This document shows positions 31,980 through 37,867 of a stretch of 64,000 nucleotides of DNA, piece by piece. The notes under the pieces were generated by a model. It ran no database searches. It had not been told where the DNA came from and was given only the letters and a program-made list of their open reading frames with translations. Each line of letters begins with the position of its first letter. Positions within the stretch are counted from its first letter, which is position 1. The DNA comes from Thermodesulfobacteriota bacterium (GTDB lineage Bacteria > Desulfobacterota_D > UBA1144 > Nemesobacterales > Mycalebacteriaceae), in contig OZ242184.1 in assembly GCA_965205855.1 (NCBI GenBank), positions 672,001 to 736,000 on the forward strand, given 5' to 3'. The position numbers and the translations under genes were made by a program.

Positions 31980-32007
31980 AGTTAACATAATATAACTTAC
32001 CGGACTT
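31980..32007 (-). other. dif: dif-like XerC/XerD site, left prophage junction
   Basis: Minus strand AAGTCCGGTAA-GTTATA-TTATGTTAACT; 11-6-11 layout with XerD arm TTATGTTAA. Confidence 0.9.
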
Positions 32008-32013
32008 TGTCAA
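31984..32013 (-). promoter_or_regulatory. Putative sigma70 promoter overlapping the phage dif site
   Basis: TTGACA (32013-32008), 18 nt, TATGTT (31989-31984). Confidence 0.6.
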
Positions 32014-32189
32014 TCCCTTTTTTTTCCATTCTCTTTTTCACTCTCTTTTTTCCATTCTCTGGCGAGTGCTCTAATGATCGCTTTGATGACCGCTTTCGTA
32101 ATTCTGAAAATGCCCCATCCTACGAGGATTATTATGCCTACGTATAATACGAGTGTAATTATCTCAATAGGGTTTTGGTTGTTCTCCAT
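32010..32189 (-). CDS. 59-aa single-transmembrane phage protein (candidate lysis protein)
   Basis: Manual translation MENNQNPIEIITLVIYVGIIILVGWGIFRITKAVIKAIIRALAREWKKESEKENGKKRD; ATG directly follows the H stop. Confidence 0.7.
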   Translation of the reverse strand: MENNQNPIEIITLVLYVGIIILVGWGIFRITKAVIKAIIRALAREWKKESEKENGKKRD

Positions 32190-32777
32190 TTAATTTTTTT
32201 TATTAAAACCTTTCCAAAACTTTTTTTGTTTCTTTAGTTGATTTGTATTGTGGTTCTTTATTTTTTTTGTACCCATACTGATTAGGTCTACCCATGTTAG
32301 AGGATCATGAAGGGCTCCCCTGAGTTGTTTATGGGACGTCATTTTATCCAACCCCTTGATGTTTATACCTAAGCTGTCTGCTATTGCTTGAGCTGCTCCT
32401 GGATTTCCGCTGTTAAATGTGTCTGTTACTATTTTGGTTAGTTGAGCTTCTTTGTTTAGCTCTGCTTGATACCGTTGTGTTTTTGCTTGCATGGCAGTGT
32501 TAGCGATTTGGCTCATATTCTGCAATTTTTGCATTTTGAATTGATTTCTGATTTCTGCTCCCGATGTATTTGCCTGTGTTTGTCCTGCGATTGACTGCCC
32601 GCTTGCTCCTGTTCCTGCCCAGTCCCAAGGTGATAATCCTGTTTGTTTAGGACCTTCCTCGTAGAATTTTTTCCATTCTCCTCCTGTTGGAGCTTTTGGA
32701 CGTTTAGGTTTTGACAGGATATTTCCTATGATTCCGCCTCCGGCGCTTACAAGCGCTGCTGTTAATGGGTCAGCCAT
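32190..32777 (-). CDS. Microvirus DNA pilot protein (H/VP2-like)
   Basis: Ala/Gly-rich hydrophobic N-terminus, LSPWDWAG (recalled phiX H: LNAWERAG), Gln/Asn-rich coiled coil. Confidence 0.8.
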   Translation of the reverse strand: MADPLTAALVSAGGGIIGNILSKPKRPKAPTGGEWKKFYEEGPKQTGLSPWDWAGTGASGQSIAGQTQANTSGAEIRNQFKMQKLQNMSQIANTAMQAKTQRYQAELNKEAQLTKIVTDTFNSGNPGAAQAIADSLGINIKGLDKMTSHKQLRGALHDPLTWVDLISMGTKKIKNHNTNQLKKQKKFWKGFNKKN

Positions 32778-34138
32778 TACATATATGTCCTATATTCATG
32801 TGAGTTATTTTGCTTCATCCAATCCTCCGGCGGCGGTATTGCTATTTCGCTGGCATATCTGTCTCCGAGTTTTTTCACAGTATTAAAGTACCTCTCCCTT
32901 TGTTGGCTGTTTTCTGATAAGTATCGTTGTACCGTTATTGAGTCTTTCTTTAAGGTCCTGCAATTTTTGCATCTTTTCAATTCGTTCCGTTTCTGCATTC
33001 TCTCCGCTCTTCTCATTATCCAGTCGTCCGACATCCCAACCATATTCTGTTTGAATTTCATTTGCAAATTCATTAAGTTCAGCGTTTTTCTGCTGGGTAG
33101 CGATACGCTCCAGTTCTTCGCGCTCCATTCTCTCCCATTCGCTGGCAAATTCGCCAGTTTCTCCAGCAGGTTCTTTCCCAGTCCCTGGCTTGTTATTGTT
33201 CGGGTTAATTTTTTCGTTTTCCTTTTGTTTTTCCATTCTGATGCCTCCTCTTTGGTGCTGTATTTTAATAGGTATCTCGTACATTTTTCAAGTGTTTTGA
33301 GCGGTTCTCTTTCTCGTCCGTAATACATTACTGCTCTTCCTTCCGGCGTTTTCTTTTCTTTCTTTTTCACTTCAGTGGGGAATACCCACTGACACTTATT
33401 TTTCCAGACGTCTCCCATGAACCTTATAGGCTGGCATGAAGTCCATCCCCATTTCCATAAGTTTCCCACGGCGGCGATTTCTCTTTTGTTTCCGGGTCTG
33501 CCTCGGTTTGGATCCCGCTTCCATTTTTCCGGAATCTCTTCCGCGATGATAATAGCGTGTATGTGTCCGTGGTCGTTTTTCTTTCCGTGTTCCGTTGTTT
33601 TGATATATGTCACTCCCTTCCAAGCATCTCTGTTTTTCCTTTCTACGCCTGCCGCGCTTGCGCACTCTCTTTTGAAGGCTTTGATAAATTTGCTCCATTC
33701 CTTTGAGCCTGCTCCAAAAGCCTTTTCATTATGATATGGAGTTGAGGTTAGTGTAAGAAACATCATATAAGCCTGCGTGTTATCATTCATAGCCTTTTGC
33801 GTCTGTAAGTAGTGTTTTCTTTTTCTTGCTTCTCTGTTGTGTTGATTCAGCAGTTCCCAATGTGGATTTATAGGTTGGTTTTCTCTTTTTTCCAGTTCAA
33901 GTCCTATCATTTCAAGTGCTTTATTTAGAGTTGGTATTCCGACTTGTTTAATAGTAAAGTTAGTTTCCCCCTTTAAGGCATATTTTTTTAGATCTTGTAT
34001 CAGGTTCGTGTTTTCCGCTGTTTGGTATTCATCGTTCACGATTTCATTTAGATGTCCCGCATAGCGGTGGTATTCTATTTTTTCTACAAGTTTTTTTGCT
34101 TGCCACCGTTTAAGTGCGGGTCCTCCGGCGGCAAGCAT
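32777..34138 (-). CDS. Rolling-circle replication initiator (HUH endonuclease, protein A-like)
   Basis: Motif I FLTLT, motif II HIHAI, motif III YLLKY with two tyrosines. Confidence 0.9.
   Translation of the reverse strand: MLAAGGPALKRWQAKKLVEKIEYHRYAGHLNEIVNDEYQTAENTNLIQDLKKYALKGETNFTIKQVGIPTLNKALEMIGLELEKRENQPINPHWELLNQHNREARKRKHYLQTQKAMNDNTQAYMMFLTLTSTPYHNEKAFGAGSKEWSKFIKAFKRECASAAGVERKNRDAWKGVTYIKTTEHGKKNDHGHIHAIIIAEEIPEKWKRDPNRGRPGNKREIAAVGNLWKWGWTSCQPIRFMGDVWKNKCQWVFPTEVKKKEKKTPEGRAVMYYGREREPLKTLEKCTRYLLKYSTKEEASEWKNKRKTKKLTRTITSQGLGKNLLEKLANLPANGREWSAKNWSVSLPSRKTLNLMNLQMKFKQNMVGMSDDWIMRRAERMQKRNELKRCKNCRTLKKDSITVQRYLSENSQQRERYFNTVKKLGDRYASEIAIPPPEDWMKQNNSHEYRTYM
32883..33236 (-). CDS. 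Overprinted internal scaffolding protein B-like ORF (117 aa)
   Basis: Alternative frame inside Rep; SD GAGGAGG before ATG 33236; begins at the EW codons after YxxKY, as phiX B does. Confidence 0.65.
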   Translation of the reverse strand: MEKQKENEKINPNNNKPGTGKEPAGETGEFASEWERMEREELERIATQQKNAELNEFANEIQTEYGWDVGRLDNEKSGENAETERIEKMQKLQDLKERLNNGTTILIRKQPTKGEVL

Positions 34139-34224
34139 TATCTCTCTGGCTGTGAACTGCCCGATTGAGTCTATTTCTGCCGTTTTAATCCTACTTACCC
34201 CCTTGGTCGTTTTGTTTTCGTGTC

Positions 34225-37258: not shown

Positions 37259-37279
37259 AGTCTGCGTCCTCCACTTTTT

Positions 37280-37483
37280 TTACTGTGTCTCTTTCTCTTC
37301 ATTTGGATCCACTCCTTTTTTTATTTTGACTTCTCCGAGTTTGATAGTTCCGAGCTCGGTTTCAGTCTCTAATTTTGCGGCGCTCACATAGCACCCAGCT
37401 AGGTTGATGCCCAAAAGCCCGGCTAGGGCTCCAATGAACGCCTTTTGTATGTATTTGTTGCCTATGATTTTTTTAAATTTCAT
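37280..37483 (-). CDS. Small phage lipoprotein
   Basis: Basic N-terminus, hydrophobic stretch, lipobox LAG-C31; SD AAGGAGG; ATGA overlap with upstream ORF. Confidence 0.7.
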   Translation of the reverse strand: MKFKKIIGNKYIQKAFIGALAGLLGINLAGCYVSAAKLETETELGTIKLGEVKIKKGVDPNEEKETQ

Positions 37484-37821
37484 TTTGCCTCCTTGTAGAA
37501 CGTAATGTTTTGCCGATGTAGAAGTTTTTCGATTTGCTTTTTGACCAGTCGAGGAAGCCTCCAGAGTCTCAAGCCTACATAGCGACTACTGCCTGATATT
37601 TTGACATTCCAGCCGTGATACATAACGTCTTCTTTTTTGTTAAGTCCATAATCATAAGCATCCTGTATGGTAAAGTCGTTGTAGTATTCTTTGTTGTGCA
37701 TAATTTTAGTAACTTTATTACCTTCCATCTCAACACCAGTGATTGGGTAGTATAGTTTTCTTTGCTCAACCGTTCCGAGAGGGTACTGGAACTCAAAATT
37801 TGTTTGTATTTCTTCCATCAT
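37480..37821 (-). CDS. First phage ORF, unknown function (about 113 aa)
   Basis: GGAGG SD before ATG 37821/37818; the track start at 37848 lies inside dif and is unlikely. Confidence 0.7.
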   Translation of the reverse strand: MMEEIQTNFEFQYPLGTVEQRKLYYPITGVEMEGNKVTKIMHNKEYYNDFTIQDAYDYGLNKKEDVMYHGWNVKISGSSRYVGLRLWRLPRLVKKQIEKLLHRQNITFYKEAK

Positions 37822-37839
37822 CCTTTCCTCCGTTTGTAA

Positions 37840-37867
37840 AGTTAACATAATATAACTTATCGGACAT
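37840..37867 (-). other. dif: dif site, right prophage junction (host-side XerC arm)
   Basis: Minus strand ATGTCCGATAA-GTTATA-TTATGTTAACT; 26/28 identical to the left copy. Confidence 0.9.

Follow-up and report, generated by a model that had tools for sequence, protein, structure and literature searches.

Described relatives and the element

The phage phiX174 and its relatives are the textbook lytic phages with single-stranded DNA (ssDNA) genomes, and for the pequenoviruses, their environmental cousins, we know of no hosts. Here we describe a microvirus-like element at positions 31979–37868 of a 64,000-nt stretch of the chromosome of a Thermodesulfobacteriota bacterium (assembly GCA_965205855.1, contig OZ242184.1, positions 672,001–736,000; this whole stretch is called the window, and feature positions refer to it). 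Our reading, to which we assign a probability of about 0.85, is that we are dealing with a temperate microvirus that is intact and probably still mobile, that it represents a deep and undescribed branch within the assemblage bearing the external scaffolding protein D, and that it integrated at dif in the manner of integrative mobile elements exploiting Xer (IMEX). Within this reading, the dependence on Xer, the reversibility, the production of virions and the roles of the small open reading frames (ORFs) are what we infer.

Microvirus prophages that integrate by Xer at dif are a kind of element that is already known. Integration of the gokushovirus EC6098 has been shown experimentally to depend on xerC and xerD as well as on both arms of its dif motif, and the prophage excises continuously, with circles coexisting with the prophage (PMC7062461). 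Like the element described here, it has no integrase and is flanked by one bacterial and one phage dif motif, and the coexistence of circles parallels the excess depth and head-to-tail junction reported below (PMC7062461). In contrast, the EC6098 group comprises different microviruses with Enterobacteria as hosts and, in the parts of that paper drawn on here, with neither D nor a spike; most of the variation in its phage motif falls in the spacer and XerD arm (PMC7062461), as opposed to the XerC-type arm, which carries both changes in our element. The same parts mention microvirus prophages of Bacteroidetes and Alphaproteobacteria, outside the gokushoviruses, that are thought to use the host XerC/XerD (PMC7062461), so that the statement in an earlier note on this DNA, made from its letters, that the known dif-integrating microviruses are gokushoviruses was too narrow.

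A temperate lifestyle among phiX174 relatives is not new either. Kirchberger et al. (2022) placed ‘Klebsiella prophages’ together with the Bullavirinae and pequenoviruses in Family 1 / Suborder I, whose hallmarks are a spike and an external scaffold (PMC9239249), and temperate phiX174 relatives are thus already in print. These prophages are integrated Family 1 members of an enterobacterial host, to which we liken the element by description only (PMC9239249). The lytic Vibrio phage vB_VpaM_PG19 carries D and, in the parts of its description drawn on here, no recognisable G homologue (PMC9431446). It resembles the element in being a D-bearing microvirus from outside the Enterobacteria, and differs from it as a lytic isolate with a phiX-like gene order, a 436-aa capsid protein and a gammaproteobacterial host (PMC9431446). 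Given the Klebsiella prophages and the Vibrio phage, the view of the earlier note that microviruses with D and G are strictly lytic and enterobacterial is outdated. We found no D-bearing prophage outside Klebsiella in the open-access literature, where the supplementary host table of PMC9239249 (4,077 genomes) might list some. What is new here is the depth of the lineage, its rearranged gene order, its enlarged capsid, its host and the signs of its activity.

The best matches for the capsid, D and replication initiator (Rep) of the element are Eel River Basin pequenoviruses (KP087957 and KP087950 among them) and similar metagenomic genomes (MH572489, MW202618). Like the element, the pequenoviruses have genomes of ~6 kb and an ORF of ~200 aa after the capsid gene F without detectable similarity to G, and their D proteins, clear members of Pfam gpD (64–66 bits), bridge the D of the element to that of phiX174. 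On the other hand, their proteins are only 22–31% identical to those of the element, over parts only; their capsid proteins, at 422–439 aa, lack its large insertions; and their gene order is Rep-D-F-(G?)-(H?), whereas the element has D placed after the post-F ORFs and before Rep, with the candidate pilot gene next. Moreover, all that is known of pequenoviruses is free circles from metagenomes with no host assigned, whereas the element is integrated in a host genome. With phiX174, G4 and alpha3 it shares the capsid fold, the D family (phrog_1386), a HUH Rep with two tyrosines and compact, overlapping genes. In contrast to these Bullavirinae, it lacks recognisable counterparts of G, B, C, J, K and E, and it has a capsid protein that is ~125 aa longer, a gene order that departs from the A-C-D-J-F-G-H of phiX174, alpha3 and the pequenoviruses, and a place in the chromosome of a non-enterobacterial diderm with a 1.4-Mb genome. 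The Bullavirinae are marked by a phiX174-type gene set and order (A-B-K-C-D-E-J-F-G-H), with recognisable G and H, and by enterobacterial hosts. By its gene order, the failure to find G, B, C and E homologues and its host, the element is not a member of this subfamily, to whose capsids its own is 25–31% identical over a fifth of the length.

Capsid, external scaffold and replication initiator

The 553-aa capsid protein scored 63.9 bits against Pfam Phage_F (cut-off 25), matched phrog_514 (E 9.3e-26) and found the F proteins of G4 and phiX174 among the PDB sequences (E 4e-16 to 1e-12). Its AlphaFold model, built from a 98-row alignment (pLDDT 74, pTM 0.75), has a confident jelly-roll core and a low-confidence stretch at residues 91–180. 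All 13 Foldseek matches of this model at E ≤ 0.001 were microvirus capsids, those of the Bullavirinae coming first (E 1e-21 to 3e-24), and the TM-scores normalised to the target were 0.77–0.82 for Bullavirinae F, 0.61–0.67 for gokushoviruses and 0.51 for Ebor. The F-like capsid of the earlier note is therefore upheld by family score and fold alike; in particular, the fold of this ORF, named beforehand as a point on which the proposal could fail, proved to match that of Microviridae capsids. The protein has ~115 extra residues, which separate its conserved N-terminal strands from the central block; relative to phiX174 F, 48 + 24 extra residues follow F residues 148–154 and 21 follow residue 93. 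The insertion after residues 148–154 occupies the same aligned place as the large insertion of three gokushovirus capsids, a coincidence to be interpreted cautiously, since alignment programs readily pile insertions together and the model cannot be relied on in that region.

The 162-aa ORF encodes a homologue of the external scaffold D. It matched phrog_1386 (E 1.9e-10), a family against which phiX174 D scores 253 bits and pequenovirus D 186 bits; it scored 52.9 bits against a hidden Markov model (HMM) of six D proteins, where the next of the 11 ORFs scored 1.9 bits; and it aligned to D with an hhalign probability of 97.5% (E 6.8e-12, 123 columns) and to pequenovirus D in tblastn (E 3e-6). The Rep protein matched PF23343 (33.8 bits, cut-off 27.8) and phrog_713 (E 5.9e-20), in an alignment with A proteins from alpha3, G4 and pequenoviruses its motifs FLTLT, HIHAII and YLLKY line up, and its best tblastn matches are pequenovirus-like genomes. 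Both the D-like scaffold and the two-tyrosine HUH Rep had been recognised from the letters, the first now resting on the family, HMM and hhalign scores and the second on the two family matches and the HIHAII and YLLKY motifs.

Inside the Rep gene, also on the minus strand and in other frames, are two open frames, at 32883–33284 (133 aa, acidic) and 33396–33698 (100 aa, very basic). They recall B, K and A*, which overlap A in phiX174; these are candidate ORFs, in which the B, C and VP3 profiles found nothing similar.

Relatives and phylogenetic placement

A search of 5.8 billion protein clusters turned up a single close relative for the capsid, P0002 (53% identity, 556 aa, on a 6,699-nt contig), over which it is full length, and D likewise has one relative, P0162 (70% identity, on contigs of up to 6,785 nt), which has no Pfam match. 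Both relatives are on metagenomic contigs of ~6.7 kb, the size of a free genome. An exhaustive phmmer search of 1.84 billion representatives with the capsid returned 255 proteins at E ≤ 0.001, of which the query's own cluster alone reached E ≤ 1e-30, the remainder being mostly 420–470 aa long and ~20–30% identical; all 18 member proteins of the ten nearest capsid clusters are on contigs of at most 7.3 kb. Pequenoviruses and similar metagenomic genomes came first among phage records for all three proteins, capsid, D and Rep, followed by phiX174, G4 and alpha3, and Vibrio microviruses appeared among the capsid tblastn matches.

Further members of the lineage were found neither with the single capsid in viral and genome contigs nor with the two-sequence alignment in viral and metagenome contigs. 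Nor did the capsid protein match in any of 60 relatives, Phage_F in any of the other 119 genomes of a phylum-level set of 120 species, or the whole element, by blastn, in any of 50,697 phage records. To look for CRISPR spacers, the phage DNA was compared with the 120 genomes, which gave 11 short non-self matches (E 1.5e-4 to 9e-3) that we take as chance; the five that were inspected had no nearby direct repeats. The suggestion that the lineage might be undescribed has thus held up, there being no described close relative and a single 53%-identical capsid among the protein clusters.

To place the capsid we used a tree of 61 rows from a quick IQ-TREE search, rooted on three gokushoviruses. The window capsid and P0002 group with support of 100 on a branch 2.53 long; they fall inside a 54-row clade (SH-aLRT 99) with the Bullavirinae and pequenoviruses, and outside a 49-row subgroup (85) that holds both of these. 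Provisionally, then, we regard the element as a deep member or a sister of Family 1, provisionally because the branch is long, the composition unusual and the search short. In the parts of PMC9239249 drawn on here, Family 1 is delimited by at least 30% amino acid identity in a protein-sharing network, whereas our placement is by capsid tree.

We also considered whether the element belongs to another microvirus group (gokushovirus-like, Suborder III), its D-like gene being a fortuitous likeness or the product of a transfer. A capsid of 553 aa, as in gokushoviruses, with insertions at the gokushovirus position after phiX F 148–154, would suit such an origin, as would a gene order other than A-C-D-J-F-G-H and the failure to find a G homologue in the element. 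Nonetheless, the strength of the D profile and hhalign matches, the pequenovirus-like genomes that are nearest in capsid, D and Rep alike, the higher TM-scores to Bullavirinae F than to gokushoviruses or Ebor, and a tree in which the capsid sits in a clade excluding the three gokushoviruses make this very improbable. The element is not one of the Gokushovirinae: it has a D homologue, and by both tree and Foldseek it is nearer to Bullavirinae F, despite its insertions.

Element boundaries and insertion at a dif-type site

The element is bounded by two 30-nt direct repeats, 5,860 nt apart, which are identical at 28 of 30 positions and share an identical core of 21 nt that occurs only these two times in the whole 1,401,274-bp single-contig genome. 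Its G+C content is 41.3%, compared with 49.7% for the genome, and its plus strand is strongly T-rich (T 41%, A 18%). Nine ORFs, all on the minus strand, make it 97.8% coding; five of the eight ORF junctions abut directly or overlap by 1–8 nt, and several starts are preceded by GGAGG-like ribosome-binding sites. None of the nine ORFs matched an integrase or recombinase family of Pfam or PHROG. In these respects the first description of the locus, as an AT-rich, one-strand block of tightly coupled genes between direct repeats, free of an integrase and apparently an intact microvirus prophage, agrees with what we find. The circular gene order is Rep, pilot candidate, 59-aa ORF, attP, 113-aa ORF, 67-aa ORF, F, 214-aa ORF, 80-aa ORF and D.

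The element is inserted between recF (316 bits) and a gene for a HIT-family phosphoramidase, which is followed by ileS. In all five congeneric genomes recF and the HIT gene are adjacent, and the spacer between them holds, in otherwise unalignable sequence, a single copy of the repeat that is identical to attR at 25–27 of 28 positions; the site is thus present and unoccupied in five of five congeners. All five also carry the arm TTATC(G/A)GACATT, as in attR, and for this reason we consider the attL arm TTACCGGACTTT to be phage-derived; the attR sequence is presumed to be the original chromosomal dif, and the crossover is placed somewhere within the identical 21 nt.

Several lines of evidence point to this site as dif. 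Its layout is 11-6-11. Using the dif seeds of Kono et al. 2011 (PMC3025954, in the parts drawn on here), attR matches the Bacillus subtilis seed at 21 of 28 positions, the best match in the whole genome, and attL at 20 of 28, while the XerD-type arm is identical at 10 of 11 positions to both experimentally confirmed seeds. The site is located at 704 kb in the 1,401-kb genome, with dnaA at 68 kb. Plus-strand genes mostly make up >0.5 of the coding sequence at 50–650 kb and mostly <0.5 past ~650–700 kb, and the GC skew is negative from ~700 kb on, which puts the element at the replichore switch. The conserved, single-copy and unoccupied site of the congeners, its position at this switch and its rank among seed matches bear out the proposal of integration at chromosomal dif, and the comparison with related genomes lacking the insert, suggested at the same time, found a single empty site in each.

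A palindromic site at 776 kb, the runner-up for the B. subtilis seed, was considered as the true dif and ruled out; its XerD arm matches at 8 of 11 positions, and it is not conserved in the five congeners (15–18/28).

XerC and XerD normally work with FtsK in the resolution of chromosome dimers. The host encodes XerD (340.8 bits, cut-off 329.6), a second recombinase whose best match is XerC (297 bits, below the equivalog cut-off of 335 and above the subfamily cut-off) and FtsK (226 bits). The features of an IMEX are therefore present: no recombinase of its own, a dif-flanked insertion at a chromosomal dif-type site, and XerD, XerC-like and FtsK proteins in the host. Besides XerC and XerD, the host has an integron-type integrase (TIGR02249, 428 bits; G000:C1:302964-304004), and the genes for all four proteins are far from the element.

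On our reading the phage would have a circular ssDNA genome, of the kind that Microviridae (order Petitvirales) package at about 4–7 kb, in a T=1 capsid. Its replicative form would carry a dif-like attP that shares the XerD-type arm and spacer of the host dif and departs from it at two positions of the XerC-type arm. Recombination of this attP with the chromosomal dif at the replication terminus would be the work of the host XerC/XerD, in IMEX mode. As both flanking sites are complete, the chromosome would retain a working dif (attR) and the prophage could leave again. After excision, the HUH Rep would drive rolling-circle replication and the capsid protein F would assemble with the external scaffold D; the 195-aa protein is probably the DNA pilot, the 214-aa ORF after F may encode a vertex or spike protein, and the genes for a membrane peptide and a lipoprotein beside attP could be swappable accessory genes, perhaps for lysis or exclusion.

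Copies of the phage in public sequencing runs

All public sequencing runs were used as contigs. Run X1, whose size matches the host genome at ~320-fold depth, contains a 20,188-nt contig that crosses attL from the host and extends 410 nt into the phage without differences, and a 521-nt contig of run X4, from another study and of low depth, likewise bridges attL without differences. Pieces at least 99% identical to the element occurred in the runs of three studies. With respect to a possible assembly chimera, therefore, the left junction has been spanned in two studies, while no single contig bridges the right one. Microvirus genomes, including phiX174 spike-ins, are frequent contaminants, and the right junction lacks any single contig with at least 31 letters on each side, as might be expected had a free microvirus or contaminant been wrongly joined to the chromosome. 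Such an artefact is nevertheless scarcely credible: the two contigs that cross the left junction are from independent studies, the insertion is exact, with hybrid att flanks, at a site conserved in all five relatives, and no nucleotide match exists among the 50,697 phage records.

In run X1, the flanks of the element have a depth of 315–328 and a 4,757-nt contig of the phage core has 541, ~1.7 times the chromosomal depth. Near the att sites this excess resolves into two versions, that of the window at 301–307 and a second at 251–260, or ~0.8 per chromosome. A 410-nt contig (depth 250.7) runs from the last nine letters of the right end of the phage through the core and the phage-type arm to 32023, continues with ~279 unlike letters and rejoins the element at 32341; it is a head-to-tail junction (attP or tandem) on a variant copy. 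A second variable segment is skipped by a joint from 37143 to 37517 at depth 260, where the window version has 301.5. Over 4,757 nt the two copies are the same, and all their differences are close to att, their variable segments covering the 59-aa gene and the end of the pilot candidate on one side and the 67-aa lipoprotein gene and the capsid N-terminus on the other, which suggests an exchange of cassettes next to attP. The excess copy number and the head-to-tail junction together suggest that the phage is still mobile. A search for attP and the empty dif, advised at the outset, thus recovered, for the first, an attP or tandem junction on the variant copy and did not recover the empty site in the contigs.

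At the start of the first variable segment, just inside attL, two tandem copies of a T-rich 14–18-nt motif (TTTTTTCCATTCTC) lie 26 nt apart at 32017–32060, and a third copy lies 621 nt further in, at 32667–32680. In two other studies, low-depth contigs follow the phage without mismatch as far as 32022, 33231 and 36275 (X4) and 37316 and 38365 (X5) before turning into unlike sequence; these breakpoints hint that the samples contain recombinant relatives or the phage in a different genomic setting.

The same observations could be produced by a tandem array of two related prophages that was collapsed in assembly, depth and junction then reflecting the array, and tandem IMEX arrays are common in Vibrio. 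The two copies are identical except near att, their depths add up (251–260 for the second copy and 301–307 for the window copy give the 541–550 of the shared core), and a junction of phage right end, core and phage-type arm is exactly what a tandem predicts. While we regard such an array as a substantial minority possibility, the genome is one 1.40-Mb contig with one capsid gene, and the second copy is present at ~0.8 of chromosomal depth rather than 1.0. As the assembly holds one copy and the variant is sub-stoichiometric, we lean slightly towards a second copy that is free or pseudolysogenic. In any case, a tandem also requires Xer-type integration of a microvirus and would alter the copy number and not the nature of the element.

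A fixed, defective remnant that no longer makes particles would explain why the genes for lysis, spike and internal scaffold are unrecognised, why Phage_F is absent from the other 119 genomes and why no CRISPR spacer was found in that set. However, the nine ORFs are all open and tightly packed, the capsid is full length against its 556-aa relative, and the element is absent from all five congeners, which points to recent acquisition. Phage DNA in excess of chromosomal depth, a second, variant copy and nearly identical pieces in the runs of three studies also speak for a phage that remains active, and we consider a remnant improbable.

Several points weigh against the element being an intact, mobile, D-bearing microvirus at dif. 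The similarity of the 162-aa ORF to D itself is weak when measured directly, with 19 bits for Pfam gpD (cut-off 25) and a phmmer E of 0.036 to phiX174 D of the PDB, and a two-sequence D profile, which found D in the PDB at E 0.2 and rank 5, brought no gain over the single sequence; consequently the link to D is carried by the pequenovirus proteins, themselves solid gpD members. Spike, internal scaffold, J-like and lysis genes could not be identified by homology among the ORFs of the element. In the tree, the placement depends on a branch of ~2.5 substitutions, a quick search and a window row of unusual composition. The overall likeness to the dif seeds is modest, the Escherichia coli seed matching at 19 of 28 positions, tied with other genomic places, and the F. 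alni seed at 18 of 28, which is not the genome's best match. Only overlapping short contigs cover the right junction, the contig on the host side having nine phage-specific letters against a criterion of 31, and no empty-site (attB) joint was seen in the contigs, which drop rare variants. Finally, the copy with the head-to-tail junction departs from that of the window in two segments or more, so that it is not simply the excised prophage and possibly reflects a collapsed tandem.

Other genes of the element

The features of the element are listed in Table 1. The 195-aa ORF, with a Gly-rich hydrophobic N-terminus, scored 12.4 bits against a custom H profile (bias 9.5, that is, compositionally biased) and reached an hhalign probability of 67% to H (E 5e-5, 64 columns), with no Pfam or PHROG match. 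The H-like protein of the earlier note therefore has this ORF as a weakly supported candidate. In contrast, its ‘spike-bearing’ and ‘two-scaffold’ labels derived from gene position, and our searches gave no significant match to G or B. For the 214-aa ORF there was no match in Pfam, PHROG or the PDB and no relative among the 5.8 billion protein clusters, and on a custom G profile it was the best of the 11 ORFs, yet not significant. A single-sequence AlphaFold model of it was unusable (pLDDT 28.7), a predicted complex with the capsid scored 0.00, and its protein-atlas neighbours are small viral jelly-roll coat clusters (0.91, low recognition), which serve as a lead only. The post-F ORFs of all four pequenovirus-like genomes also miss Pfam and phrog_1483, and accordingly the missing G match excludes little. 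As for the B-like protein, none of the 11 ORFs reached 1% hhalign probability against B, C or VP3 profiles.

Table 1. Features of the microvirus-like element (window positions).
Feature	Position	Strand	Basis
attL, dif-like site; distal (XerC-type) arm is the phage version (TTACCGGACTTT)	31979..32008		direct repeat; arm unlike that of 5/5 congeners
59-aa small protein	32010..32189	-	ORF and translation
Variable segment 1	32024..32340		second copy in run X1, ~279 unlike letters
195-aa candidate DNA-pilot protein (H/VP2-like)	32190..32777	-	custom H profile, hhalign
453-aa rolling-circle replication initiator (HUH, two tyrosines)	32777..34138	-	PF23343, phrog_713, motifs
162-aa external scaffolding protein (gpD homologue)	34225..34713	-	phrog_1386, HMM, hhalign
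80-aa predicted coiled-coil protein	34706..34948	-	ORF, start context
214-aa ORF directly 3' of capsid gene	34953..35597	-	positional spike candidate
553-aa major capsid protein (F/VP1)	35597..37258	-	Phage_F, phrog_514, fold
Variable segment 2	37144..37516		second copy in run X1 differs
67-aa predicted lipoprotein	37280..37483	-	lipobox LAGC, strong ribosome-binding site
113-aa ORF	37480..37821	-	ATG at 37821 preceded by ribosome-binding site
attR, dif-like site with host-type arm (TTATCGGACATT)	37839..37868		direct repeat; congener comparison

Among the smaller ORFs, that of 80 aa has an ATG at 34948 and an alternative TTG at 35074 that would give 122 aa, the ATG form being the more likely; it has no similarity to B, C or VP3. 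In the 59-aa protein a hydrophobic helix is combined with a basic tail, as in a single-pass membrane peptide, and family matches stayed below threshold; it is a candidate lysis or membrane accessory protein. The 67-aa protein begins with a predicted signal peptide that, on visual inspection, closes with the lipobox LAGC; it matched phrog_14979 (E 9.5e-4), a family of unknown function. The 113-aa ORF had no significant match in Pfam or PHROG, and its likely start is the ATG at 37821, another ATG, at 37848, falling inside the att core. Promoter-like sites (10, compared with 11.0 expected) and terminator-like sites (9, compared with 5.9 expected) in the scan were counted as chance level, and no RNA run containing the stretch was found.

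Host and implications

The host RecF is 76% identical to that of one congener, the other 79 loci in the scan being 28–34% identical and taxonomically scattered. The non-enterobacterial host inferred from the letters is supported by the 1.4-Mb genome and by this congener, itself a Thermodesulfobacteriota bacterium. An Omp85-family BamA is encoded in the host genome (482 bits, G000:C1:834942-837134), while a family search of this genome, a single contig that is 98% complete, gave no match to LpxC and only a 32-bit, hexapeptide-transferase match to LpxA. Judged from these genes, the host may be a diderm without lipid A, which, if so, would rule out a receptor of the phiX174 type, the lipopolysaccharide (LPS); the apparent absence of lipid A genes thus raises the question of the receptor.

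Through the element, a very divergent microvirus with D is linked to one particular host genome beyond the Proteobacteria-centred picture, and lysogeny by way of Xer and dif, with no integrase, is indicated for a D-bearing lineage too. The known hosts and lifestyles of the phiX174-type phages are widened accordingly. The combination of D, insertions of gokushovirus size and an unidentifiable post-F protein also bears on how scaffolds, spikes and protrusions evolved. As the run in which the host reaches ~300-fold depth resembles one from a culture or enrichment, the phage–host pair may be within experimental reach, and would then provide a second model of a temperate microvirus, next to the gokushovirus of E. 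coli.

A bolder reading, which we offer as speculation and think unlikely to hold in full, is that the element is the first host-linked, still active member of a deep third branch of D-scaffold phages, infecting a diderm of small genome that comes from a minor phylum outside the Proteobacteria and seems not to make lipid A, with a gokushovirus-style capsid loop, a non-LPS receptor, and an integrated copy accompanied by a free or tandem variant copy with which it swaps att-proximal cassettes. The capsid insertion loop would then possibly replace or accompany the spike, and the external scaffold and Xer-mediated lysogeny would be old, widespread traits of the phiX174 lineage and not enterobacterial specialities.

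Some genes of the host neighbourhood deserve mention. At 28567–30711, on the minus strand and two genes from the dif site, is a gene for a 714-aa double-AAA+ ATPase that is unusual for a bacterium; it scores 765 bits against the CDC48 subfamily model, just under the cut-off of 803. Downstream of ileS, at 41830–47397, are genes for a pyruvate dehydrogenase complex with an E1 of the homodimeric type (1306 bits), E2 and, on the other strand, E3. These genes, like the signal recognition particle RNA and three tRNAs near the start of the window, are ordinary host context.

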